Positions 1,702-39,202 are shown, counted from the first letter of the stretch. The stretch: 41,651 bases of DNA from Bacilli bacterium (GCA_024683495.1 JAIKYF010000021.1:1-41651), one strand, 5' to 3'. Numbers and translations: made by a program. The notes: generated by a model not told the origin, from the letters alone.

Positions 1702-1818
1702 TTAATTTACATTGATCTTAGCCTTAATTCAGGCCTTGTCATATGTGTCGACTAATTGTCGTGCTAGGAGAGTGCCTTTTGTCTCATTGAAGAGAATGGG
1801 TTTCGTCCTGCGACAAGA

Positions 1819-2154: not shown

Positions 2155-2289
2155 TTTGCTGTAATCATCCAAACCCAGTTTTCCTGATTCGTCCAAATTT
2201 CGCTTTCCCCGAAAAGAGCCTCCGCCAGTTGTCTAATTTTGCCACGACTACTTCGACGATATGCAAAAAACACTTGATATAGTTCTACA

Positions 2290-2312
2290 TGCTATAATAA
2301 TGGTTATAGGAG
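2290..2312 (+). promoter_or_regulatory. Extended -10 promoter and RBS of the cassette gene
   Basis: TGcTATAAT at 2290-2298 and AGGAG at 2308-2312, with ATG at 2320. Confidence 0.6.
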
Positions 2313-2319
2313 CATCTAT

Positions 2320-3243
2320 ATGAAGACATATTGTGGAGACTGCAAAAAAGCATTAGATCAAGGCGATCGTTTTTGCCGTTATTGTGGATCTAGCAGGATC
2401 ATAATTGAAAAGGACGAGGAAGCACCTTCTTTTGAAATTAACGGAGATACCTTAGAAACGTACAATAGTGGCTATAGCCATGCATTCAAGGATATACGCT
2501 TATATTTATTTCATTGCCTTGACCATACTTTAGAAAAAAGTGAATTTTTTGATACCATGAAAAAGATAGAAAGGGATGACCTTTCTTCATGGAAACGAGA
2601 GTTATCGGACACTTGGAAACAAATGACTGCATTAGTTATCCCACAATCGGTTAAACGGATTGATATTGAGAGAAAATTTAGCGATTTTTCTATTTTCTAT
2701 AGTATCTCAATCCATCCTGATGTCCATTTTTTTAATTTCTGGCCCTCTCATCAGACTTATATCGGATACATTAATATCCCTCCTAAAACAGAAATAAAGA
2801 AAGTCGGCCAAATCATCGCATACGAATTAAAAATAGATGAGGGGCGTACAGTGTATGATATTGGTAACTACTATGATACTTTGGTTAACAGAATTGTGCT
2901 TCCTAAAACACTTAAACAATTGTTATGCAAAGAACCTCATTATATGCAAATTAATAGTACTTGTGAGATAAACATACCAAGTAGCGTTGATTATATTGAT
3001 ATTGAAATGTTTTCGTGTTGGAGCATTGGAAAAGTGTTCTATGATGGAACGAAGTATAAATTTAAAAGTATATTACATTTTACTGAATTACCGTTTAATT
3101 CGTTTGATTTGCAAGAATTTACTCCAAATGTCGTAATACATTGCACTGATGGTGATTTAAGATTAAGGATTATTAGAAAAGAAGATAAAATGAAAAAAAT
3201 TGAACCACTTAATAAAAGCAATAGTATTGTCGAATTTTATTAA
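2320..3243 (+). CDS. Zinc-ribbon protein with degenerate BspA-type leucine-rich repeats
   Basis: N-terminal CGDC..CRYC. Repeats LVIPQSVKRI, INIPPKTEI, IVLPKTLKQL and INIPSSVDYI, plus a 'FYDGT...IHCTDG' tail, resemble BspA/LRR_5 proteins. Confidence 0.6.
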   Translation: MKTYCGDCKKALDQGDRFCRYCGSSRIIIEKDEEAPSFEINGDTLETYNSGYSHAFKDIRLYLFHCLDHTLEKSEFFDTMKKIERDDLSSWKRELSDTWKQMTALVIPQSVKRIDIERKFSDFSIFYSISIHPDVHFFNFWPSHQTYIGYINIPPKTEIKKVGQIIAYELKIDEGRTVYDIGNYYDTLVNRIVLPKTLKQLLCKEPHYMQINSTCEINIPSSVDYIDIEMFSCWSIGKVFYDGTKYKFKSILHFTELPFNSFDLQEFTPNVVIHCTDGDLRLRIIRKEDKMKKIEPLNKSNSIVEFY

Positions 3244-3259
3244 GTTAGTATCTTGCGGT

Positions 3260-3286
3260 AAAAAAGCCGCCCATTATGGACGACTT
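3260..3286 (-). terminator. Intrinsic terminator in cassette end
   Basis: Minus strand AGTCGTCCA-TAA-TGGGCGGCT-TTTTT. Confidence 0.7.
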
Positions 3287-3403
3287 AATTTACATTGATC
3301 TTAGCCTTAATTCAGGCCTTGTCATATGTGTCGACTAATTGTCGTGCTAGGAGAGTGCCTTTTGTCTCATTGAAGATAATTGCTCTCGTCCTGACACAAC
3401 AGA

Positions 3404-3582
3404 GTTATCTCACGATAGGCTCACATATCCCGCTTGGGGCAAGGATTCGCATCCTCCCTCCGAAGCCGTTCCATCCCCTGCCGCCACGTCATCGGCGCCG
3501 GGTCCGAGGAAATCCTTTGTATAAATACAAAAGACGCCTCTTTCGAGACGCCTGATGTGTTTGCGTTTGCCGTTGCGCCCAG
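3404..3582. mobile_element. Degenerate or truncated element remnant between two cassettes
   Basis: GC-rich stretch with TCTCACGATAGGCTCACAT (cf. TCTCTCCGACAAAGCTCACAT in the 1819 left end) and the same type of minus-strand terminator (3529-3553), but no TGT/ACA termini. Confidence 0.4.
3529..3553 (-). terminator. Intrinsic terminator in remnant
   Basis: Minus strand AGGCGTCTC-GAAA-GAGGCGTCT-TTT. Confidence 0.65.
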
Positions 3583-3828
3583 GTTACTGTGCCAAGACGA
3601 CGCACATTCTCTCCGAAAGGACGAACTTCGCTCTCTCCGTCGAAGCCCATATTCGACCCGTGGGGTGCGATTCGGAGGACGCCTAACATTTGCCAGCCAA
3701 AACTACGATCGTGCGACGTGGGCCAGATTGTTTAACTCTTCTAAATAAATACATACAATTTTAATGTCATTTTTATCTGGACATAAAATTAACTCTCGAA
3801 TTTAGATAGAAAACAAGCCCGAATTCTT

Positions 3829-4629
3829 TTATCTGGATGTGGTTCGAATTCTATTTAATAATTCGCTGTACTTGCTAATTGCATTGTTTGCTATTTCGAT
3901 AACACGAAATAATTCATTAACCAAATCAGGTTCAAAAACAAATTCAATAAATCTTTCTTTAGGTTGTGTATTTTCCACTCTAGCACATAAATCAACAAAC
4001 AATTTATCAATCGTTTCTATGTCTTTTTTTAGTAACGGTACAGCTTCAACAGCAAGATGTCTTAAAGGATAGCAACTTCCATAGTTAGCAATACCACGTA
4101 ACTCGTCAAGATAATATTTTAATTTATCTTTAACCTTACGGTTTTTTTGTCGCAAAATTTGGGGGTCATCAAAACAAAAGAAATGATCCCATAAATAGAA
4201 ATTATAAAATTTGTTTTCGAAAAGATGATAGTAATGCTCTAATCTATGCTCGCACTCTTGTTTAATTTTATAAAGATTTTCTTTATTGTCTAATAGTTTT
4301 TTGATGTACTCACACTCGCGTTCAACTTCATCGATAATTCTTTTAACACCATACTCACCTTCAAAACGACGATATTTAGAAATTAGTAAATTCACTTTTT
4401 CGACAAGCTCTTTTTTTGCTGAATAATAGTCTGATGCAGAATAAGTTCTTTCGTAAAGCTCTTTTTGACGTTCCAATTCTTCTTGCTCTTTTAATTTTTG
4501 ACGTTTCAATTCTTCTTGCTCTTTTAAATATATAGGGTTATCTACTAAAGGAGTGCCACAAAAAGAACAATATAAATGATCTATATCATACTCTTTTTGA
4601 CATTTTGGACACATCTTAGGTTTGCTCAT
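3829..4629 (-). CDS. Zinc-ribbon/coiled-coil hypothetical protein
   Basis: 266 aa with N-terminal CPKC..CSFC, a tandem LKEQEEL(K/E)RQK coiled-coil repeat and a helical remainder. Very AT-rich. Confidence 0.7.
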   Translation of the reverse strand: MSKPKMCPKCQKEYDIDHLYCSFCGTPLVDNPIYLKEQEELKRQKLKEQEELERQKELYERTYSASDYYSAKKELVEKVNLLISKYRRFEGEYGVKRIIDEVERECEYIKKLLDNKENLYKIKQECEHRLEHYYHLFENKFYNFYLWDHFFCFDDPQILRQKNRKVKDKLKYYLDELRGIANYGSCYPLRHLAVEAVPLLKKDIETIDKLFVDLCARVENTQPKERFIEFVFEPDLVNELFRVIEIANNAISKYSELLNRIRTTSR

Positions 4630-4635
4630 AATATC

Positions 4636-4664
4636 ATAATAGTATTAACTATTTTTTTATGCAA
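4636..4664 (-). promoter_or_regulatory. Sigma-A promoter, probably leaderless, for ORF 3829-4629
   Basis: TTGCAT (4664-4659), 17 bp, TATTAT (4641-4636), then 6 nt to ATG with no SD. Confidence 0.55.
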
Positions 4665-4691
4665 TACGCTGACAAAAAGATAACAAAGAAG

Positions 4692-4717
4692 AAAAAAGAC
4701 GCCCATCAAGGACGCCT
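4692..4717 (-). terminator. Intrinsic terminator in cassette end
   Basis: Minus strand AGGCGTCC-TTGAT-GGGCGTCT-TTTTT. Confidence 0.7.
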
Positions 4718-4838
4718 AATTTTACTTCATAGAATATCTGCTAGTTCCTAGCCAACTAGATAATCTTAATTAATGCTCTGTCGAGGGAAGTCGTTTTTGT
4801 CCAACTGAGGGAATCAACGACTGTCCAACAACAATATC

Positions 4839-5172
4839 TGTGCCATGACGACGCCCATTCTCTCCGAAAGGACGAACTTCGCTCTCTCCGTCGAAGCCCA
4901 TATTCGACCCGTGGGACGCGATTCGGAGGACGCCTAGCATTTGCCAGCCAAAACTACGATCGTGCGACGTGGACTGACCGGGGCTAGCCAGAACGCGTTA
5001 TATACAGATATATAAAGTAGCTTCGACGTCGATGGTTTCTGATAGTTCCAGGATGAGGGACGGACGAGCATGAAAAAACCGCCCACGAGGGACGGTCTAA
5101 TTCGCTTTTGCTTCGTGCGTCGGGGAGAACGATCTTCGTCTCGTTGGAGAGAATTGCTCTCGTCCTGACACA
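4839..5172. mobile_element. Empty mini-element (334 bp), copy 2, abutting the rpsR stop codon
   Basis: TGTGCCATGACGACGCCCATTCTCTCC...GAGAATTGCTCTCGTCCTGACACA. The left ~134 bp are nearly identical to 3588-3721 and the rest to copy 1. It ends 7 bp from the rpsR TAA. Confidence 0.85.
5073..5098 (-). terminator. Intrinsic terminator in mini-element; likely terminates rpsF-ssb-rpsR
   Basis: Minus strand GACCGTCC-CTCGT-GGGCGGTT-TTTT, the first such hairpin after the rpsR stop. Confidence 0.75.
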
Positions 5173-5179
5173 CAAGAGT

Positions 5180-5410
5180 TTATCTTTGTCCAGGTTCTGG
5201 GAGAAGAGCCATGAAACGAGCATTTTTGATCGCTCTGGCGAGTTGTCTTTGATACTTCGCAGAGGTTCCAGTGACGGAACGTGGGGTGATCTTCCCATCA
5301 GCATTGATATACTTTTTGAGAAGTTCAACGTCCTTGTAGTCAATATATTTGACTTTGTTCTTAGTGAAGTAGCAGACCTTCTTCCTGGGTCTCATTTTCT
5401 TGAAAGCCAT
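5180..5410 (-). CDS. rpsR: 30S ribosomal protein S18
   Basis: '[46 protein letters not shown]'; follows ssb. Confidence 0.98.
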
Positions 5411-5425
5411 TGTTGATTATCCTTT

Positions 5426-5896
5426 CTATTCAAAGTCTGGAAGATCGTCGTCGAGAGTATCGATGGTGTCCATATTGGACGAAGATTCAGGCTGAACTTG
5501 GCTGGTGACGCCTGGCGCTGGACGATCGGGGCGGAAATCATTTCCACCTTCATTAGCGCGGGGTGTAGTGTCTTTTGGATCGAGGAAATAGAAATTATCG
5601 ATAATCGTTTCGATTGTGGTCATTTCGATGCCGTCGGTCTGACGGATATATTTTCTCTGACTCAAACGTCCTTCAACAGCGACGCGAGTTCCTTTATGGA
5701 GACTGGCTCTAGCAAGTTCTGCTTTTTGTCCAAACGTAACACACCTCATATACAAAGGCGGGTTCGAAGTGCCGTCGGAATTTTTCTTATAATCATTAAC
5801 CGCAATGGTGAAGTTAGTGATTGTGAGCTCAGGTGAAGGTTTTCTGGTCTCTGGCTCACGGGTAAGATTCCCAATAAGGATTACACGGTTCAACAT
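5426..5896 (-). CDS. ssb: Single-stranded DNA-binding protein
   Basis: 'MLNRVILIGNLTREPE', 'VAVEGRL' and an acidic tail DDDLPDFE; lies between rpsF and rpsR. Confidence 0.97.
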   Translation of the reverse strand: MLNRVILIGNLTREPETRKPSPELTITNFTIAVNDYKKNSDGTSNPPLYMRCVTFGQKAELARASLHKGTRVAVEGRLSQRKYIRQTDGIEMTTIETIIDNFYFLDPKDTTPRANEGGNDFRPDRPAPGVTSQVQPESSSNMDTIDTLDDDLPDFE

Positions 5897-5926: not shown

Positions 5927-6211
5927 TTAGTCTTGATCGACAGTGATCAAGTGACGAAGAACGTTGTTATCAAGTTTCGCTAAACGATCAAATTCGTTGA
6001 GAGCTTCTTCGGCAGTCACTTTGAGAATGACATAGTAGCCTTTGCTCTGCTTTTTGATCGGGTAAGCCAACTCTTTGACGCCCCACTCCTCGGTCTTGGT
6101 GACCTTAGCCTTGTTGTCTTCAAGGATCTTCTGGAGTTTGGCGATTTCATCTTTACGGGCAGCCTCGTCGAGGTTGGCGTTTAAGATGTACATGAGTTCG
6201 TATTTCTTCAT
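5927..6211 (-). CDS. rpsF: 30S ribosomal protein S6
   Basis: 'MKKYELMYIL...WGVKELAYPIKK..GYY...VLRHLI'; RBS AGGAGGTG. Confidence 0.98.
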   Translation of the reverse strand: MKKYELMYILNANLDEAARKDEIAKLQKILEDNKAKVTKTEEWGVKELAYPIKKQSKGYYVILKVTAEEALNEFDRLAKLDNNVLRHLITVDQD

Positions 6212-15883: not shown

Positions 15884-15999
15884 GGGTGTTTCCTCCTATA
15901 TGAATTTAGTTGAGTGTGTGGTTTTGTTTGGCTAACAAGGTGCCATAGAATGCAAGTTACACCATAAATGGTGAAACTTCAAGAATTATGCGCTTTTGG

Positions 16000-17250
16000 C
16001 TAGTCTAAATGGATATGTAGGCTCGAAGTGTGATATTCCACGAACCCTTTCTTGAATCTTGGGACGTAGATGATCTTGCCATCTTTATTGAGGAAGACGG
16101 GCCAAATCGAGAGATATTTGGGATCGATTCCGTTTTCAAGGAGCATTCTCTTAATCGGCTCAAGGTAGCCGCCATAATTGAAGACGTCCTGAGGAAGAAC
16201 GCTTCTGACGGTCAAAGGATAGTCGTCTTCATGGATATTTCTATCTTCTGCCCCATTGGAGAAATCGAAATCAAAGGCATCGCACTCGAATTTGCAGGGT
16301 TTTTCGATGACGTAGGTATAAGGCATATCGTTTCCGGTCGGATTGACATAGATGACGTCATAGGCCTTGACGAGATAGACGTCTCCCTTTAAATGAAGCG
16401 AGGCATTGGGGACTTTATTGAGGCAAAGCTCTCTAATGTCTTTCAGCATCTTTTCATTCACCCTGATGTGAACTGGGGATTTATCGTTAAGGAAGGAGAC
16501 GATGGTTTCGGCGAATTCATCGGAGGATAAGGCGATGATTGAGCGGATATTAAGCTCGTTGAGCTTTTTGGCGTTATCGTCAATCGCCTCAATCAAGCCT
16601 TCTTTTTCGGCGTTTTCTTTCTTCATTTCCACCAAAAGGGCATCTCTTTCGATTTCGTTCATGCCCTCAATTTCGCGGCGGATCTCGCTTTTTTCTTTAT
16701 TGAAAGTCGATTCGGAGAGGTCATCGCTAAATGGGACATTATTCTCCAAGCAATATTCGCGGAGGTCTTCTTTAGAGTAGGAAAGCAATGGCCTAACAAT
16801 CATGATGCCATGGCGAGTGGAGATTTTGTTATAGCCATATTTGGCATTTTTGATGCCGCTCCGCTTAGTGACCAAATAAGTCTCTAAGACATCGTCTTGG
16901 GTATGGGCGATGAAAGTGGCCGCAAGGTCGTATTTCTCCGAGATTTCTTTGAAGAAGTCGTAACGGATTTTTCTCGCCCACTTCTCATAATCGGTGGTTT
17001 TCCCAGCCTGAGGGAGGAACTGCGTGTCGCAGACTTCAAGGCATAGCTGATGCTCAGCGCAGTATTCACGGATGTTGGATTCAATGTTATTGGTGTTATC
17101 CATGTGATAGTTGATATAGCAAACAATCGGGTGGATGCCCTTCTTCAAAAGCATATCCATCAGAGCCATCGAGCTCGATGAATAGGTGGCGGCGATCATA
17201 TAGACGCCGTCTTTGTCAAATTTGAAATTCAGTGTGTCTTCACTCCACAT
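16000..17250 (-). CDS. tilS: tRNA(Ile)-lysidine synthase homolog with degenerate PP-loop
   Basis: 'E.WARKIRYDFF', 'AHTQDDVLET', 'IVRPLL', and position upstream of ftsH. SGGxDS is replaced by TYSSSS. Confidence 0.8.
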   Translation of the reverse strand: MWSEDTLNFKFDKDGVYMIAATYSSSSMALMDMLLKKGIHPIVCYINYHMDNTNNIESNIREYCAEHQLCLEVCDTQFLPQAGKTTDYEKWARKIRYDFFKEISEKYDLAATFIAHTQDDVLETYLVTKRSGIKNAKYGYNKISTRHGIMIVRPLLSYSKEDLREYCLENNVPFSDDLSESTFNKEKSEIRREIEGMNEIERDALLVEMKKENAEKEGLIEAIDDNAKKLNELNIRSIIALSSDEFAETIVSFLNDKSPVHIRVNEKMLKDIRELCLNKVPNASLHLKGDVYLVKAYDVIYVNPTGNDMPYTYVIEKPCKFECDAFDFDFSNGAEDRNIHEDDYPLTVRSVLPQDVFNYGGYLEPIKRMLLENGIDPKYLSIWPVFLNKDGKIIYVPRFKKGFVEYHTSSLHIHLD

Positions 17251-17261
17251 ACGTATCTCCT

Positions 17262-17522
17262 TTACGCATCGCTAGTTTGGTCATCGATAATCTCATACAT
17301 GGCTTTGGCCTGATCTTTGGTCGCGAATTCCTTGACTTGAAGAATCTTCGCGGTAATCGTGTTTTTACCGATTTGGAGGACGAGGATATCCCCTTCTTTT
17401 ACCTCACTCATCGGCTTAGCGATTTTGCCATTGATCGAGATATCGCCATCATCGCAGAGGTTCTTGGCAGTCTCCCTCCGTTTGATGATTCTGCTCACTT
17501 TCAGAAATTTATCGATTCTCAT
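17262..17522 (-). CDS. yabO: S4-domain RNA-binding protein (YabO/RqcP family)
   Basis: 'MRIDKFLKVSRIIKRRETAK.LCD.G.I.ING..AKP..EVK.GD'. Confidence 0.92.
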   Translation of the reverse strand: MRIDKFLKVSRIIKRRETAKNLCDDGDISINGKIAKPMSEVKEGDILVLQIGKNTITAKILQVKEFATKDQAKAMYEIIDDQTSDA

Positions 17523-17542
17523 GCTAATAATCGTATCACAAA

Positions 17543-20500
17543 TTAGCCTTCAAGGTGCTTTAAATAAAGCACATGTATCAAATTTGTGATTTCTTCGAGG
17601 TGGTCAAGCCACTTCTCTTGCTTGTAATAACGGATTCTTAATCTCTTTTCGACGAAAGAAACGCGGATGAATTTTAGATATGGGGTCATCCTCTCAAATA
17701 GAGAAACCCCAATCCCGTTTATCCTCGAGAAAGTGTCCGATAAGTTGATGTCGACATAGGTATCGTAGTCTTCGACCGAAGTGAATTCCTCGCTTTCGGT
17801 AAAGATATCGATGCTCTTTTTCTTAATCAAAAGCTTAACCTCTTCTGGCATTTTCCCATACATATCCCGCATATGTTTGCTGAAAGCGCGCAATTCTTTC
17901 TCATCTTTGACCGCGTCTAATTCCTGATATAAACCAACCTTATCGGAGTTAATCGCATAGCCTTGAGGGATATAGGCATCGATCTTGAAAAGCTTCTTCG
18001 GCTTAGGAGGCTCCTTAGGCTTCCCAGCCTTTTTCTCCTCAATCGCATCATTAAGGAGCTTCATATATAGATCTAAGCCAATCGTATCGATGAAGCCTGC
18101 TTGCTCAGAACCCAAAATATCTCCCGCGCCTCTAATCATCAAGTCGCGTTGGGCAATCTTGTAGCCAGAGCCTAATTCGGTGAATTCCTGAATGGCTTTT
18201 AGTCTCTTCTGGGCCTCATCATTAAGGTCTTTATAGGGCTTATACATCAAATAGGCATAGGCGATTTTATCACCTCGGCCGACTCTGCCCTTAATCTGAT
18301 AGAGTTGGGCTAAACCAAATCGGTCGGCATCTTCCACGATAATCATATTCGCGTTAGGGATGTCGATTCCATTTTCGACGATGGAAGTGCAGACCAAAAC
18401 GTTAATTTCCTTATCATAGAATTTCGCCATGACGTCTTCGATTTCTTCCTTTTCCATCTGGCCATGGACCACCCCCACTTTCGCGGATGGGACATTTCTA
18501 GCGATATAAGACGAACGGGAATAAATGCTGGCGATTTTGTTATGGACATAGAATACCTGCCCATCTCTTGCCAATTCTCGAGAGATAAGCTCATAAGCCA
18601 CATCTTCTGAATAAGGGGTGACATAAGTTTGGATCGGCATTCTGGCTTCCGGGGCCGTATTGATCTGCGATAAAGGTCTAATGCCGACCAAAGACATCTG
18701 CATGGTTCTAGGTATTGGGGTGGCCGATAAAGTCAAAACATCGACGGAGGATTTCAATTCTTTGATCTTCTCTTTTTGCTCGACTCCGAATCTTTGTTCT
18801 TCATCCACGATCAATAGGCCTAGATCCTTAAAGTGGATTTCTTTCGATAATAGGCGATGGGTCCCGATAACTAGATGAATCTTTCCTTCATCGATTTCCT
18901 TAATCGCCACCTTCTGAACGGCAGTCGGGACTAATCGAGATAACTGGGCGATATGGACTCCGAAATTCGCGAATCTTTGAAGGGCCACTTCATAATGTTG
19001 CCTTGCTAATAAGGTCGTCGGGCAGAGCAAGGCCACTTGCTTGCCCGCTGAAATCGCTTTGAAGGCCGCTCTAAAAGCGATTTCAGTTTTGCCAAAACCC
19101 ACGTCTCCGCATAATAGACGGTCCATGATTTCCGGCTTTTCCATATCCTCTTTGATTTCATCGAGGGATTTTTGCTGGTCTAGCGTTAATTGATAAGGGA
19201 ATTCTTGCTCAAATCTTTCTTGGAATTCATCGTCGGGTGGGAAGGCAAATCCTTCGATTTTCGTCCTCTCCCCATATAAAGAAATCAAACGGTCGGCAAG
19301 ATCAGACATCTTCTCTTTGATCTGCTGCTTCTTCTTTTTCCATCCGTTGCCGAATAAAGAGGATAATTTTGGGGCATAGCCTTCTCGGCCTGAATATTTC
19401 CTGATGAGATGGAGCTGCTCTAAAGGGACGTAAAGGACTTGGTTATTCGCATAGATGATCTTGATATAGTCGCGATGAAGGCCGTCGACTTCCATCGTCA
19501 TGATCTCGGCGAATTGACCGATGCCTTTATATTCGTGGACGACATAATCGCCAGGCTGAAGATCTTCGTAGGTTTTAAGGATCGTGGCTTCTTTGAACCT
19601 AGAGGAGAAACGGGAGTTCGCGACTTTTTGGCCAAAGATCTCGCTTGAAGAGATATAGGCAACCTTGATGTCGGGAATCTCAAATCCGGAGTTTAAGGGG
19701 GTGGTCGCAAGACCGAGTTTTCCTTCTGGAAGAGTAAATCCATCCACGATTTGATAGGGAATTTGAGAATTTTCCAAGAAACTCTTAACCGTCTCTAATT
19801 GACGATTATCATTAAGGGAAATCACCAATTTATCGGTGCTGGCCAAGTAGTTATTGACCGTCGGAACCAAGGAAGCGATGCCAGTTCCGGCCGAGATGAT
19901 CTTTCGGACATTGAAGAAAGAATCGTCAGGGCCTTTCACATATCTTTGCCCAAAGAAGACCTTGCTCATCTTCGCTAAGGCTTTATCGATGCCCATATAG
20001 ACTTCTAAATGAGAGGGAATCAATTGATTTTGATGGAGTTCATTGAGGAAGGCTCTTGATTCCTGATCTAAAAGTTGGGTGGAGGCCGTGAAAGCTTCTT
20101 TAGAAGAGACGAAACAGAGTTTGTAATCAAAATAACTGGTGATGGAATAAGGCTCTCCGACCGCGAAGCCCATATATTTATAAAGTCCTGGGCGGTAGTT
20201 TCTTCCGACGATATTCTCAAGGTCCACCATCGTGTGCTGCTTGAGGATCTCCCGTTGGCTGTCATTAAGGAAGGATAGATCGACGTCTAATTGATCATTT
20301 ATTCTCATGACAAAGGAATTGATTTCATCATCGTCGAGGAATAAATCGGTAGCAGGCAAAATATCGATTTCTTCGATTTCTTCAACCGAGGATTGAGTGG
20401 CGATATCGAAGAATCTAATCGATTCGATGTCCGTATCGAAGAATTCGATTCGGATGGGTTTTAGATAATTGACCGAATAGATGTCGAGGATATCTCCCCT

Positions 20501-33523: not shown

Positions 33524-36500
33524 ATGGGGATTAAGATTTTCTATGATGTCGACACCTATTTTTCTTTCGTGAATTTTTTCCTCGGGGCGAAATTCCTTTC
33601 CTTATCTCAGAATAAGAAAATCAATCCCTTCGCCTTCATCAATTCCTTATCAATTGAGAATGATTCGGATGATGAAATAATCGATGTTCAGATAAGGGTG
33701 GATTTCGATGAGCCATCCATCCAAATCAGCCCAATAAAAGTACCTTATTTCGCCCCTCACGATATCATCTCCCCTACCCTTGAAATGAATGTCGATTATG
33801 CTGAATTTTCAAAAATCACACGCAATTCTCAATCGAAATTAGCGGTCTCCGTGGTTGATGGAGATGGGAACATCCTTGGAAAGGAAGATATTAGTTTCAC
33901 CTTGTGTTCCGTCGAAGGAAGCTTCGATAGAATTATCGATAAAACCATCTTAGCTTCATTCTCGATTCCATCTGACGAAGACGTTAAGGCCTATTTGGCT
34001 GGGGCGGCTGGCATGCTATATGAAGTTATCGGTGAGGAAGAAGATGAATTAGGTGGCTATCTTTATAACGACAAAGAAAGAGTGAAAGAAGAAGTGAAAG
34101 CTATCTATCTTTTACTAAAGAATCATCGAATTTCCCGTCAAATCCCACCTGATTTATTATCTAGAGTCCGTTTGCCTCACTCGATATCAATGGAAGGAGA
34201 GGCTTCCTCTATAGATATTGCCCTTCTATTCTCATCAATTATTGAAGCGGACGACTTACATCCATTGCTGATCATTCTTGAAGATAAGACTCCTTTAGTG
34301 GGGGTTTGGCTGAATGCGAGTGGTGCCACATCCCAAATCGAAGACCTAAGCGATTTATTAGACGTCGAAATCCAAAAGGATGGGAACATTTTTATATTCG
34401 ATCCAAGCGGAGTTTTTCCGGAATCATCCGTCTCTTTTGAAGATGCAAACGAATTAGCCAAAAAGAAACTGAAGGATGTGGGTTTAGATTACTTCCTTGA
34501 TATTAACATCTGTCACCAAGAAGGAATCGCCTCCCTTGATATTGATTCAATCAAGAAGGCCGATAAGGCTGTAAACAATAATCTTCCCGACCTAGAAAAT
34601 GGGCCAAAGGAGAAAGATAAGTTCTCCCTATGGGAAGAAAAACTCTTGGATTTGGATATGAGGAATAACCTCATAAATTACCGTTTAGGCGGGAATTGCC
34701 TGCAATTTTTGTTTAAAGACAGTTCTTCATTCCATTATGGGATATCAAGCGGAACAAATTTTTCCATCGAGACTCTTCAATCTCAAGTCATTCATGGAGG
34801 AGACTTCTTGGCTAATCGCGACTATTCCTCTTTGATCGGCGATTCCGAAAAGCGTCTAGCAAGCCGGACCCTCACAGCGATCAGCGCCAACGGGAAAAGC
34901 GAAGACAACATCATCAATCTTGCTAGAAAGATCAACACCGAAATAGAAGAAAGCGGCGTTAACCCCTGCTTCTTGACTATTGGTTTAATCAAATGGTTTC
35001 CGAACGAGAAAGCCGCCAAGAAGAAAAGAGGAGCGTGTTATGCCCCAATCATCCTCATGCCTGTATCAATTCCCCGTCATAAACAAGGGAACAAATATAA
35101 AATCGAAATCGATGCAGACCAAATTCAGTTCAACACAACATTCATCGAATATCTAAATCAAGAATTCCATCTCGATATCTCTAAATACGCCAATCCAGAT
35201 TTAATCAGCGCCTTAGGTATCAAGGGTGTTTTTGCGATGTACCGCAAGGAGATATCTATTTTTGAAAATTGGGAAATCATTGATAATTTCTCTTCTTTGG
35301 GCCATTTCTCCTTTGCCCACTATGTTATGTGGTCGGATATGAAGAATAATCATGATTTGTTCCTTAAAAACCCCATCATTTCCGCGTTGGTTAATAAAGA
35401 AACGTTCGTAACTGATGATTCTATTAACGTGGATTTGAGCGAGACCAAACTAGAAGATGTCGCAATTCCTCTTGATATCGATTCATCGCAGCTTAAGGCA
35501 GTAATCGCTTCCGAGAAAGGGGAATCTTTCGTTCTCGACGGCCCTCCAGGCACGGGAAAGAGCCAAACTATCGCTAACATGATCGTCAATTTCCTCTATC
35601 ACAAAAAGAAAGTCCTTTTCGTTGCCCAAAAGGAAGTTGCTTTAGATATCGTCAAAAGCAAACTTGAAGAGATTGGCTTAGGAGTCTTCTGCTTACAGGT
35701 GGCTTCAGCCAAAGCCAATAAAGGCGATGTCCTTCGCCAAGTCGGCAGAGCAAAAGAGTTCGGGACCGTCAAAGAATACTCCAAACTAAAAGATCTATCT
35801 AAGAATGTTTCCGATAAAACCTCGAATATTAATAAGAATCTCGAGATACTTCATAAAGAGAACTATTGTTTTTCCCTCTATGCCGCCATCTATAAATATT
35901 TGAGCACTGAGTCATATCATTCCTCCCTATCATTCGAAAAGAAATATATCAACACCTTAACCAAAGAAAAATATGAGCAGGCTATTCTATATTTAGAACG
36001 GTTAATTCCGGCCTATACAAATGCCGGCGGCTATAAAGATAACATCTTTGCCCCATTCACCTATGATTCATATGGCTTTGGGATTAAGGATGAGATGTTT
36101 GCCCAAATCGACTCCTTAAGAAGATCTCTGAAAGAACTAAGAAATCAAATAAACCAAATAAACAAATTTACCAATCTGCCAATTGATTTTGGGAAGGAAG
36201 GGTTGGTCAGTTTGGATAGGATTGCTTTAAAAATACCTGACAAATCCCGCTTAGATTATGATTTTCTTAGAAATGAGGAAGCCTTCAAAAACTATAATAT
36301 ATTGATGACCTTCCTTGAAAAATCCATCAAGATTGCGGAATTTAGGGAATCGACATTTTCAAGAATAAGCATCGATTGCTTGGATGATTATGAAATCGAT
36401 ACCATCACCCATCGTTGCACTTTGGCAGATGGTAAAATAGACAATATTTTCGTAAGGCTCAAAACGAGGGCCCTAGCCAAAAAATTCATTAAACGATATA

Positions 36501-39202
36501 GCCTAGGAAAACCAATCAAAGATGAGATCAAGATGCTCTCTCAAATTGGGGTTTATCGTTGTAATGTCGCTGATAATAAATTCCCTGGATATGACAATAT
36601 ATGTTTGAAAGAGTCATCATATATTAAGGGTTTATCAGAAAGAATTGAGTATTCTTATGCTTTCTTCAAGAAAGTGCTTTCGAAATACGGGTTAAAAATA
36701 AATGATTTAACAAGCGTCATTAGCCAATTTATTTCTTCTTACGAGAATGATGTTCATTTAGATGATATATTTGCTTCATTCCATGAGAAATATCTCGAAA
36801 CGAAAGGTTTATTTGAAAACCTAAATAAAAATTACGGCTTCGTATATCCAGAGTTAAATGACGAAAACCAATACGATAGAGTAGTAGACTCATTAGAAGA
36901 AATCCTTAACAACAAGAACGATTTAGACAAATATACTTTACTCTCAAGGGTTTTAAATGAAGGCGAAAAATTCGTCCCCAAATCACTAATCCATGCTGTA
37001 AAAGACGGGGATTTTGCTATTTCTGATATTGTTAATATCTATGTTAATGCCGTTGCCTATAAATTAATAACCGTCATAGCAAACGAAGAAGGATTAAATA
37101 ATTTCGATAAATACTCTTTCGATCAATTGATTGAAGAATATCGAAAGAAAATTGACGAAGGTAAGAAAGCTTCTATAACCCAAACTGCCGCAATAGTCAG
37201 TGCCAATTTCCCCAATGTGAATGCCCATTACTCCAAAAACACGAAGATCGCTTCCTTATTTAAATATATAAGCAGCACTCCTAGGAATAAGACCCTCAGA
37301 AAAATCTTCGAAGAATGTGGGGAGATGATTGCCAATTATTGCCCATGCTTCTTGATGTCGCCTTTGTCTTTGGCCCAATACATCGCTCCTGGGACCATGG
37401 AATTTGACGTTGTCATTTTCGATGAGGCTTCTCAGATTCCGACTCGTGAAGCAATCGGGGCTATCGCTAGAGGAAAATCTGTTATCATCGCCGGCGACCA
37501 AAAACAGATGCCACCAACCAATTTCTTCAGCAAGCAATTCGATATTGATGATAATGCCTCTTACTACAATGTCGCAGACGATTTGGAGAGCTTATTGGAT
37601 GACGCAATCGCCTTAAACCTCCCCCGCCGTCAATTGCTTTTCCACTACCGTTCTAATCATGAATCTTTAATCGCATTCTCAAATAAGAACTTCTATAACA
37701 ATCATCTTCTGACCTTCCCGTCGATCGATAATTCAGTTTCGCGTCTTAAATATGTCTATGTTGATGGCTTATATGAAAGAAAGAAGGCAATCAATAGAGC
37801 TGAAGCCGACGCGATAGTAAATGAAACAATTAGGAGATTGTCAGATCCTGAACTATCCAAGAAATCGATTGGGATTATCACTTTCAATGAATCTCAGCAG
37901 AATCTCATAGACGATATGCTCTCCACTGCCGCTTCCTTCCATCCTGATATCGCCCCCTTATTAGAAAACGTGTTCGTCAAAAACCTCGAAAATGTTCAGG
38001 GCGATGAAAGAGACGTCATTCTCTTCTCTATTTGCTATGGACGCGACCCCAAATCAGGAAAAGTCTCATTAAACTTCGGCCCTTTATCCAAATTCAACGG
38101 AGAGAGACGTCTAAATGTTGCGATCACGAGAGCAAGAGATGAACTTATCGTCTATGCTTCGATATTACCTGAAGAAATCAGAGCTTCTGAAGCGTTGAAT
38201 CAGGGCGCTACCTATTTAAAGAACTTCCTTTCGTATGCTCAGAACTATAACTTGTTTGATTGGCATCACTCAATACATACCCCATCTATTGCCGATTTCG
38301 TCGCCAATGACATAAAGGCCAGAGGTTTTGAAGTAGAGCAAAGCATTGGAGTATCAACTTTCAGAGTGGATTTAGCCATTAAGAGAAAGGGTGCTTCTAA
38401 CTATATTCTTGGGGTGATGATAGATAAAGATCCCGAACAGAGAACTTGCCGAGATAGAAACGTCATCGAACCTAAGATGCTGAAACGTCTTGGTTGGAGA
38501 TTGTATTATCTTAATAGTCTTGACTATCTATACCGAAAAGTAGATGTCATCGATGAAATATGCGCCGAGATTGAAAAAGAGGAAAACAATAACATCGAAC
38601 AAGACGCACCGGTTACGGCTGAATTCGAGAAAAAAGAGATAACTTTGTGGGATACCTATCCGCACGCTCAAATGATGCGTAAACACAAGAGGGTTCCTAA
38701 GGAAAAATTAGAGGACACCATTCGATTAATTATCGAAAAAGAGGGCCCCATTTCGGAGAATGCGTTATTCGAACGATATGCTGAAGAAATCGAAATGGAT
38801 AAATTGACCTCTAAACTCAAGAATGCCATTCTAAAATTTATAAATTACGACAGTAATGTTTTAATCTCCGAGCATGTTTGCGGGAAAACATTCTACTGGA
38901 GAAAGAATAAGCCATTTATTACATGCGACTTCTTTAGATTTAACGTTCCATCTCAGAAGATCGTTAGAAAACTAACTAATCTCCACCCACGTGAGATTGG
39001 TTGTTTAATCTATGATATTTTGAATGTTGAGGGGCGTTTGCTCGACACTCAATTATATGAATCAATAAGAGCTGTTTTTAACCTCGACGCCATACGTAAA
39101 CCAGATAAAGAATATATTGATGAAGTCTACACATATTTAATGTCGATAGGCTTTATGGGATTAAATAAAGTCGGCACCGTATTTATGATTGGAGAACCCT
39201 AA
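33524..39202 (+). CDS. Large DUF4011 / split SF1 (Upf1-like) helicase / Vsr-like nuclease protein (Hhe-like)
   Basis: 'WEEKLLDLDMRNNLIN' (DUF4011), 'DSSQ..A', GPPGTGKS, 'MSPLS', 'FDEASQI', 'GDQKQMPP', 'HYRS', 'ENVQGDERD', 'RRLNVAITRAR', 'RVDLAI...RDR...LGW'. Confidence 0.88.
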   Translation: MGIKIFYDVDTYFSFVNFFLGAKFLSLSQNKKINPFAFINSLSIENDSDDEIIDVQIRVDFDEPSIQISPIKVPYFAPHDIISPTLEMNVDYAEFSKITRNSQSKLAVSVVDGDGNILGKEDISFTLCSVEGSFDRIIDKTILASFSIPSDEDVKAYLAGAAGMLYEVIGEEEDELGGYLYNDKERVKEEVKAIYLLLKNHRISRQIPPDLLSRVRLPHSISMEGEASSIDIALLFSSIIEADDLHPLLIILEDKTPLVGVWLNASGATSQIEDLSDLLDVEIQKDGNIFIFDPSGVFPESSVSFEDANELAKKKLKDVGLDYFLDINICHQEGIASLDIDSIKKADKAVNNNLPDLENGPKEKDKFSLWEEKLLDLDMRNNLINYRLGGNCLQFLFKDSSSFHYGISSGTNFSIETLQSQVIHGGDFLANRDYSSLIGDSEKRLASRTLTAISANGKSEDNIINLARKINTEIEESGVNPCFLTIGLIKWFPNEKAAKKKRGACYAPIILMPVSIPRHKQGNKYKIEIDADQIQFNTTFIEYLNQEFHLDISKYANPDLISALGIKGVFAMYRKEISIFENWEIIDNFSSLGHFSFAHYVMWSDMKNNHDLFLKNPIISALVNKETFVTDDSINVDLSETKLEDVAIPLDIDSSQLKAVIASEKGESFVLDGPPGTGKSQTIANMIVNFLYHKKKVLFVAQKEVALDIVKSKLEEIGLGVFCLQVASAKANKGDVLRQVGRAKEFGTVKEYSKLKDLSKNVSDKTSNINKNLEILHKENYCFSLYAAIYKYLSTESYHSSLSFEKKYINTLTKEKYEQAILYLERLIPAYTNAGGYKDNIFAPFTYDSYGFGIKDEMFAQIDSLRRSLKELRNQINQINKFTNLPIDFGKEGLVSLDRIALKIPDKSRLDYDFLRNEEAFKNYNILMTFLEKSIKIAEFRESTFSRISIDCLDDYEIDTITHRCTLADGKIDNIFVRLKTRALAKKFIKRYSLGKPIKDEIKMLSQIGVYRCNVADNKFPGYDNICLKESSYIKGLSERIEYSYAFFKKVLSKYGLKINDLTSVISQFISSYENDVHLDDIFASFHEKYLETKGLFENLNKNYGFVYPELNDENQYDRVVDSLEEILNNKNDLDKYTLLSRVLNEGEKFVPKSLIHAVKDGDFAISDIVNIYVNAVAYKLITVIANEEGLNNFDKYSFDQLIEEYRKKIDEGKKASITQTAAIVSANFPNVNAHYSKNTKIASLFKYISSTPRNKTLRKIFEECGEMIANYCPCFLMSPLSLAQYIAPGTMEFDVVIFDEASQIPTREAIGAIARGKSVIIAGDQKQMPPTNFFSKQFDIDDNASYYNVADDLESLLDDAIALNLPRRQLLFHYRSNHESLIAFSNKNFYNNHLLTFPSIDNSVSRLKYVYVDGLYERKKAINRAEADAIVNETIRRLSDPELSKKSIGIITFNESQQNLIDDMLSTAASFHPDIAPLLENVFVKNLENVQGDERDVILFSICYGRDPKSGKVSLNFGPLSKFNGERRLNVAITRARDELIVYASILPEEIRASEALNQGATYLKNFLSYAQNYNLFDWHHSIHTPSIADFVANDIKARGFEVEQSIGVSTFRVDLAIKRKGASNYILGVMIDKDPEQRTCRDRNVIEPKMLKRLGWRLYYLNSLDYLYRKVDVIDEICAEIEKEENNNIEQDAPVTAEFEKKEITLWDTYPHAQMMRKHKRVPKEKLEDTIRLIIEKEGPISENALFERYAEEIEMDKLTSKLKNAILKFINYDSNVLISEHVCGKTFYWRKNKPFITCDFFRFNVPSQKIVRKLTNLHPREIGCLIYDILNVEGRLLDTQLYESIRAVFNLDAIRKPDKEYIDEVYTYLMSIGFMGLNKVGTVFMIGEP

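Follow-up and report, generated by a model that had tools for sequence, protein, structure and literature searches.

The 3′ end of rpsR as an orientation-specific attachment site for stacked, cargo-only transposons of gut and rumen bacteria

Among transposons that use a fixed site beside a conserved gene, Tn7 offers the closest described parallel to the locus considered here. In Tn7, whose machinery comprises TnsABC and TnsD and whose site is attTn7, the element is bounded by TGT…ACA termini with several subterminal repeats, and insertion produces a 5-bp duplication. The right end lies toward glmS, which is left intact, and TnsD sets the point of insertion by its distance from conserved coding DNA. 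The DDE transposases of rve type that serve Tn7, Mu, and Tn5053 are marked by three traits together: termini of TGT/ACA, binding sites in tandem, and a duplication of 5 bp. Surveys of Tn7 elements start from the TnsB, TnsC, or TniQ genes, so that units consisting of cargo only are missed by them. In the available portions of two papers (Correa et al. 2024, PMC11014353; Benler 2021, PMC8649781), the Tn7-like families are each tied to one conserved gene and carry defense, toxin-antitoxin, and transport cargo, and the available portion of the first describes strong target immunity for Tn6022, a Tn7-like element found in comM.

The 3′ end of rpsR, the gene for ribosomal protein S18, has been described as a target in another setting. 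In staphylococci, the SaPI4-family phage-inducible islands integrate there, and the available part of their description (PMC8407400) reports a tyrosine integrase, 15-bp direct-repeat core sites, and truncation of rpsR. For elements of the Tn7 kind, a search of literature text found no paper combining “Tn7-like,” “attachment site,” and “rpsR,” and a search for Tn7 together with “ribosomal protein S18” and “insertion” found only two papers, both unrelated. Nor does rpsR or S18 appear as a target gene in the available portions of the supplements of Faure 2023 (PMC10293859) and Benler 2021 (PMC8649781); in those of the latter, “S18” is the name of a strain, and no 7-mer of the unit ends described below is present.

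Here, a stretch of 41,651 nucleotides (the window) illustrates how small mobile units have accumulated behind rpsR in a bacterium known from a 1.59-Mb MAG of 172 contigs that is 85% complete (G000). In this window, lysS lies upstream of rpsF, ssb, and rpsR, the members of one operon (Table 1). The rpsR gene ends with a TAA stop codon at 5182-5180, is full length in comparison with 40 relatives, and is 74-84% identical to the gene in genus relatives and 66-84% identical to the rpsR of the other loci discussed here. The closest element end stops at 5172, reading …CCTGACACA on the plus strand and TGTGTCAGG… from the side of rpsR, and 7 bp (5173-5179) separate it from the stop codon; the block beyond opens with TGTGTCAGGACGAGAGC... 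on the rpsR strand. Five units, T1 to T5, follow one another in a single orientation, each bounded by TGT...ACA ends. A preliminary description of this DNA had reported the 7-bp gap, the intact gene, and five units that present the same terminator-bearing end toward rpsR, and on all of these points it proved accurate.

Table 1. Positions of the rpsR operon genes, the proposed attachment site, and the units of the array in the window
Feature	Position	Strand	Description
rpsF	5927-6211	minus	member of the rpsF-ssb-rpsR operon
ssb	5426-5896	minus	member of the rpsF-ssb-rpsR operon
rpsR (ribosomal protein S18)	5180-5410	minus	76-aa ORF, intact, terminal gene of rpsF-ssb-rpsR
Proposed attachment site	5173-5240	minus	conserved S18 codons plus 25 nt down to the insertion point
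5-bp target copy	5173-5177, again 1814-1818		caaga on the plus strand, tcttg on the rpsR strand; flanks T1-T4
T1	4839-5172	minus	334 bp, gene-less, MITE-like, right end toward rpsR
Right end of T1	5066-5172	minus	terminus TGTGTCAG, two tandem 24-bp repeats, then terminator hairpin
T2	3588-4833	minus	carries gene for a 266-aa zinc-ribbon protein (3829-4629, minus)
X module	3399-3587	minus	189-bp non-coding block between T2 and T3, own terminator
T3	2160-3398	minus	carries gene for a 307-aa zinc-ribbon protein (2320-3243, plus)
T4	1819-2154	minus	second gene-less unit, 86% identical to T1
T5, right part	1-1815	minus	right end 1676-1815; two ABC-2 permease genes (37-876, 878-1669)

The individual units vary both in their ends and in what lies between them. 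The ends of T1 form 55-nt imperfect terminal inverted repeats that are 73% complementary, as located by repeat finding, starting with TGTG and ending with CACA, and its right end has a 93% identical copy at 2050-2154. The right end of T2 (TGTTGTTGGACAG…) and the left end of T3 (TGTAATCATCC…) are of divergent types. Spacers of 5 bp occur at the T1/T2 and T3/T4 junctions and one of 3 bp at T4/T5. The last unit runs off the contig of the window and resumes on contig C129, where it carries an ABC ATPase gene, whose start falls at the contig end, and a gene for a 381-aa protein before its left end at C129:33212. The cargo genes of T2 and T3 both open with a zinc-ribbon motif, have a G+C content of ~30%, and match no Pfam family beyond the ribbon; a 33-bp tandem repeat is found at 4462-4527, within the former. 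Elsewhere in the window, at 33524-39202 on the plus strand, there is an ORF of 1892 aa.

Two features recur in the ends. On the rpsR strand, the rpsR-proximal (“right”) ends of all five units fold into a hairpin followed by a T-run, and these folds are better than those of shuffled sequences (z of -2.5 to -4.3), with a terminator scan flagging three of the five (T2, T4, and T5). As each right end carries a terminator, cargo is not expected to be expressed from the rpsR promoter. Moreover, every end contains a tandem pair of direct repeats that recur at a 24-bp period (AGGACGAGAGCAATTCTCTCC then GAGACGAAGATCGTTCTCCCC is one such pair) and score 8.6-32 bits as against 0.055 matches per shuffled unit. 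Among distinct ends, this layout is kept in 79 right and 56 left ones. Across the three main types of right end, repeat 2 co-varies with repeat 1 as a direct repeat, which favors protein binding sites over a hairpin. The possibility that the right end acts as a conserved RNA or single-stranded DNA hairpin was set aside, since the three types keep direct-repeat similarity and not complementarity. No known RNA family was matched in the window at Rfam gathering scores.

The distribution of these ends was followed with the motif TGT-N2-CA-N-GACGA-N5-ATT-N-TC-N20-TCTC, which fits eight of the ten ends of the window. In the genome from which the window comes, it is matched at eight places in the window, at the end on C129, and nowhere else, and a reversed control motif gave no match. 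A scan of one genome per prokaryote species returned 37 loci, five of which were set aside as unrelated by sequence and taxon; the 32 judged to belong to the family lie on 24 contigs of 22 MAGs classified as Bacilli, Mollicutes, Erysipelotrichaceae, or Candidatus Enteromonas, from gut or rumen. Metagenome contigs from JGI and ENA contributed a further 53 loci, 49 of the family and four judged unrelated, giving 81 family loci altogether, in RF39-like gut and rumen MAGs. In the genus of the window, a short motif is matched in 5 of 78 genomes, two of these matches being apparently unrelated to the family.

When the ends are classed by sequence (GACGAG or GACGAA for right, GACGACG for left), the ends immediately behind rpsR comprise 29 distinct right ends, which read away from it, and not one left end. 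Unit-to-unit junctions hold 20 right and 18 left ends, and one right end is at a contig edge. A remainder of 27 right and 42 left ends was classed as “other,” many of which, on inspection by eye, are junctions with end types that the motif misses, or else follow the X module or a piece of the rpsR 3′ end. A random scatter of ends with no fixed polarity at rpsR, the outcome that the preliminary description had named as telling against its proposal, is not what this tabulation of orientation reveals. The attachment site at the 3′ end of rpsR is real and specific for orientation, and it has been used over and over in many species.

How the position of insertion is set becomes apparent from a comparison of the rpsR-proximal junctions. 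In the window, the Pro codon of a conserved Leu-Leu-Pro (LLP) stretch of S18 ends at 5198, which is 25 nt from the element end. Among the 31 contexts that could be parsed (of 33 distinct contexts, two being not parsable), the distance from this codon to the TGT terminus is 25 nt in 20, 24 in six, 23 in four, and 26 in one. The gap between the stop codon and TGT, in contrast, ranges from 5 to 14 bp among species because the C terminus of S18 itself differs (…EPGQR, …EVK, …YVAD, and others). The fixed distance at rpsR is the one measured from the LLP codons, to within 23-26 nt, and not the one to the stop codon. The 5 bp at the insertion point have no consensus (tcttg, acaaa, ggggc, cttgt, agttg, attgt, gatgt, and ttata are all found), and this, together with the near-constant spacing to the LLP codons, indicates that the position of insertion is measured from conserved coding DNA rather than from the local sequence.

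Empty sites, which the preliminary description had proposed to look for in related genomes, were seen. At 29 rpsR loci of the genus whose flanks were read by eye, at least 16 are empty, with a native terminator hairpin directly after the stop codon; ~10 have TGT-type ends of other kinds 1-7 bp after the stop codon, and the remainder are ambiguous. These other end types mean that several divergent families of ends make use of the rpsR site.

Evidence for insertion as a discrete event comes from target duplications, for which the 5 bp outside each right end were compared with the 5 bp outside each downstream left end of the same locus. Perfect duplications were found for 9 of 64 right/left pairs, as against 0.06 expected. 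They flank single units in five cases (L028, L056, and L125, all three of 335-338 bp; L121; and L122, the exchanger unit) and blocks of two or three units in four, namely L027, L053, and L082, along with the T1-T4 block of the window. In one genome (G004), the sequence flanking the left end corresponds, from 3 nt after the stop codon, to that of the empty site in a relative (G067). A further comparison involves G103 and G106, whose rpsR genes are identical; in G106 an additional unit has come to lie on the rpsR side of the resident one. It is flanked by gct(tg), which as a 5-bp duplication is one TG short, and in the window the T4/T5 junction lacks a TG in the same way. Spacers of 5 bp account for 14 of the 22 distinct ones at junctions. 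The unit nearest rpsR in the window, T1, has no duplication of its own, and the spacers of this array differ from each other (gatat, gcaaa, and tct); both would fit the movement of blocks by their outermost ends, with older spacers carried along inside. The TGT/ACA termini, the two tandem repeats per end that resemble binding sites, and the 5-bp duplication support an insertion chemistry that matches that of Tn7.

The units range in size from 0.33 to 4 kb, and most carry cargo genes, which may be in either orientation. The commonest cargo is a 396-aa Na+/H+ exchanger, present in 20 loci, and Pfam matches identify ABC-2 transporters, HipA, and HepT-like proteins fused to GNAT or ASCH domains, as well as ORF6N and RhuM proteins, TIR-domain proteins, Fic, and LysR regulators. 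Arrays differ in the order of their units. The exchanger DNA of G106 is 99.0-99.3% identical to that of genomes whose rpsR is 70-79% identical to that of G106, and in G103, with an rpsR identical to that of G106, the exchanger is only 90.5% identical to the G106 copy. Cargo-only units have thus spread recently between species.

Some cargo units also contain genes for Nif11-like leader peptides (…LSEEQIEKIK…EEGVELTDD…), recognized by eye, and one such gene adjoins a gene for a 525-aa protein without a Pfam match; together they may form a small peptide natural-product set. The positions concerned are L067 (G104:C52; 529-828, 927-2504, and 2700-2984) and L064 (3822-4118).

The units are DDE-type transposons, non-autonomous ones, whose mode of targeting resembles that of Tn7. 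It is probable, if well short of certain, that the 3′ end of rpsR serves as a dedicated polar site for small cargo-only transposons that are moved by a DDE-type enzyme acting in trans and placed by a Tn7-like selector. A cut-and-paste transposase of this type, supplied in trans, would act on units bearing TGT…ACA termini and two tandem transposase-binding-type repeats of ~24 bp per end. A selector would bind the conserved coding DNA 25-60 bp upstream and position the transposase, as TnsD does at glmS, and a unit would then enter ~25 nt beyond the conserved stretch of Leu-Leu-Pro codons in S18, duplicating 5 bp of the target. Because the right end that faces rpsR brings a terminator with it, the rpsF-ssb-rpsR operon stays intact and terminated, and the stack would grow as new units, or blocks that use their outermost ends, are inserted on the rpsR side of the unit already there.

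The likeness to Tn7 extends to the termini, the repeats, the 5-bp duplication, the right end facing an intact, conserved, essential gene, and an insertion point set by distance from conserved coding DNA and not by local sequence. As in the Tn7-like families, the units are tied to one conserved gene and carry cargo of the same kinds. They differ from Tn7 in that the target is rpsR, no tnsA, tnsB, or tnsD was found in the elements or the host genomes searched and no tnsC among the array ORFs scanned, the units are small and contain only cargo, the right end includes a terminator, and up to five or more units are stacked at one site. Stacks of two to five or more are found in the window and in G102-G106, which does not fit the strong immunity described for Tn6022 and would imply that target immunity is missing.

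Resemblances to other systems are each partial. With the SaPI4-family islands the units have in common that mobile DNA collects at the end of the same gene, but no integrase has been found in the units, their ends are inverted, they make a 5-bp duplication, and rpsR remains whole. MITEs and other non-autonomous DDE elements similarly have terminal inverted repeats, a target duplication, and no transposase gene; T1 and T4 (334-336 bp), which have no gene and consist of two ends only, come closest to these, and all of the units need an enzyme in trans. Unlike MITEs, however, the rpsR units are strictly specific in site and orientation, mostly carry cargo, and have no known parent element. Integron cassette arrays provide yet another parallel, in that small, mostly single-gene units are arranged head-to-tail in one orientation on one platform and are shuffled and shared between hosts. 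The rpsR units depart from integrons in the absence of IntI and of an attC-type site, in their two inverted ends and target duplication, in cargo genes that face either way, and in the terminator at the start of each unit. A more far-reaching suggestion, which we regard as unlikely, is that the rpsR stacks represent an undescribed gene-capture platform that combines transposon-type ends with integron-like behavior and depends on an enzyme or selector outside the recognized Tn7 families; the mimics of the rpsR 3′ end that some units have where a left end would be would then create a new landing pad behind those units.

A confounding issue for all of these readings is the missing machinery. In a Pfam scan of the array ORFs (49 + 6 + 21), no transposase or recombinase fitting the ends was found, nor any AAA+ regulator of the TnsC/TniB kind. 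The exceptions among these ORFs are an unrelated gene of the IS3 type beside one array (L093), encoding 508 aa and having unrelated inverted repeats of its own, and an ISLre2/UPF0236 gene inside one cargo, which was likewise set aside. For the rve domain (PF00665), the genome of the window gave four matches, all of IS type, with a longest open frame of 453 aa. Among 20 other array-bearing genomes, eight have no match and none has an rve-matching open frame of more than 510 aa, and in the 78 genomes of the genus the longest such frame is 479 aa.

Individual candidates fared no better. Genes of the IS3 and IS30 types in G000 were set aside, an rve match 3.8 kb from rpsR in G033 is IS3-like and lies beside remnants of IS256, and thirteen further rve loci of middle size consist of one IS21 pair and otherwise single-gene insertion sequences. 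The ORFs on short contigs of G000 encode housekeeping genes only. Also in this genome, at G000:C116 ~15900-17700 (L015), is an insertion sequence that is GC-rich and unrelated to the rpsR units. It has inverted repeats of ~28 bp, encodes a transposase of 445 aa (a weak rve match), and is inserted beside what appear by eye to be tRNA genes. As the genomes are incomplete MAGs, from whose bins repeats and plasmids are often lost, absence of the enzyme is not proven by these searches, and it may simply be unsampled.

The proposal made at the outset, that a target selector recognizes the C-terminal coding sequence of S18, accords with the near-constant spacing to the S18 codons. The preliminary description had also suggested looking for TniQ or TnsD. 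TniQ (PF06527) has no match in the genome of the window or in five array genomes, and none of 401 genomes of the order exceeds the cut-off. Given that the searches yielded no gene for TnsD/TniQ or TnsB in the arrays and host genomes covered, and none for TnsC among the array ORFs, the Tn7-type protein selector is, like the kind of enzyme, something that we infer, and membership of the Tn7 family, for which the defining proteins were sought and not found, cannot be stated.

A related explanation keeps the chemistry and changes its source. Here the same reaction would fall to an rve transposase that is not Tn7-like but akin to those of Tn552/Tn5053, Mu, or IS21 and that works with an ATPase and an unrelated DNA-binding adaptor, all of it supplied from an unbinned plasmid, phage, or other element. 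Duplications of 5 bp and TG/CA termini are common to Mu and Tn5053, so that the duplication size and termini observed here would suit these systems as well. A search of the 401 genomes of the order for Mu-transpos_C (PF09299) gave three over the cut-off. One, a Mu-type transposase in G244, was set aside, and the other two belong to compact Tn552/Tn5053-like modules from this same bacterial order, on short contigs (L159/L162 at G382:C2 and L158 at G136:C167), which consist of an ORF of ~126 aa with a zinc ribbon, a transposase of 420 aa matching rve and Mu-transpos_C, and an AAA_22 ATPase of 267 aa, with TGT termini and repeated CAAATAAT motifs. Modules with these genes, such termini, and repeated subterminal motifs are of the sort that this explanation calls for. 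Their ends, however, are AT-rich and unrelated to the GACGA-N5-ATTCTC ends of the rpsR family, for which reason they were rejected as its source; they are present in just 2 of the 401 genomes; and as to a plasmid or phage origin, the end motif has no match in IMG/VR viral contigs and the T1 sequence (4839-5172) none in PLSDB plasmids. We consider a non-Tn7 enzyme of this kind quite unlikely.

Equally doubtful is the idea that the stacks are now kept and exchanged mainly by recombination, whether Campbell-type or homologous, that runs through the end of rpsR, the ends common to the units, and the conserved flanks, for instance after DNA uptake, with the duplications surviving as relics of older transposition. 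Besides the lack of a transposase and the heterogeneity of the spacers, it draws on several anomalies within the arrays. In G102 (L064, G102:C64, 4340-4412), the array contains a second, near-identical copy of ~75 bp of the genome's own rpsR 3′ end, which keeps the same 12 nt after the stop codon and is located behind a Nif11-like peptide gene and before the next right end; this copy looks like the product of recombination rather than transposition. Degenerate rpsR 3′ fragments precede internal right ends at L032 (235-280), at L063 (~1955-2000) and L102, and at L076 (2575-2613), with the right end 23-25 nt after their LLP-like codons, and in three genomes the fragment follows a Nif11-like peptide gene at the place where a left end would be expected. 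Such fragments may be products of recombination through the end of rpsR or, alternatively, mimics of the target borne by the units themselves.

A variant form of the locus bears on the same question. In one gut metagenome run (X4), a single low-depth contig joins 3604 to 4856 and so lacks T2, exactly between two left ends that are 96% identical. Such a form could predate the insertion of T2 or could have arisen by deletion across those ends, and it suggests that the T2 cassette is present in part of the cell population and absent in the rest. Against a principal role for recombination, in at least nine lineages the duplicated bases are post-stop sequence peculiar to the host, and G103 and G106, with identical rpsR genes, differ by one precisely placed unit. 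In addition, hosts with flanks no more than 70-79% identical, and so with little homology through which to exchange DNA, share cargo that is 99% identical.

Two further observations complicate the picture. The X module of the window is GC-rich and has no Rfam match, and its last ~45 nt recur before element ends in L050, L062, L111, L037, L061, L075, and L081. An rpsR fragment within it was considered and rejected, as neither alignment nor three-frame translation found S18 coding sequence, and resemblance to the post-stop flank is confined to its last ~12 nt. On two independent contigs (L084, 1195-1340, and L035, ~260-423), a lone right end with its terminator is found ~52 bp after the stop codon of ftsZ, with no left end nearby, and may be a relic or mark a second site.

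Very unlikely, finally, is a new cassette system in which a host- or community-encoded recombinase of no recognized transposase family captures units at rpsR in the manner of an integron platform: the uniform orientation of mostly single-gene units beside a highly expressed operon, the failure to find a known enzyme in more than 100 genomes, and the rpsR 3′ mimic that replaces the left end of some units would suit it, but DDE transposition is what terminal inverted repeats, tandem repeats of binding type, and duplications of 5 bp are characteristic of, the empty sites have neither a recombination core nor a hairpin site, the end repeats do not form a conserved attC-type hairpin, no array ORF matches Phage_integrase, and the right-end terminators block expression of cargo from the rpsR promoter.

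On the favored reading, that of cargo-only DDE-type transposons with Tn7-like targeting, the ends, the 25-nt spacing rule, and a candidate target of ~75 bp are now defined, so that a candidate transposase and selector should be recognizable once found. If this machinery turns out to be compact or unusual, genome engineers would have reason to take an interest in a system that places its insertions at one set position after a universal ribosomal gene. With these units, rpsR becomes one of the few conserved genes that give site-specific transposons a safe place to land, in this case from an uncultured, genome-reduced lineage of gut and rumen bacteria whose mobile elements are little known. Surveys that begin with the transposase overlook a layer of cargo-only units by which genes for transport, toxin-antitoxin, defense-like, and peptide functions spread between species.
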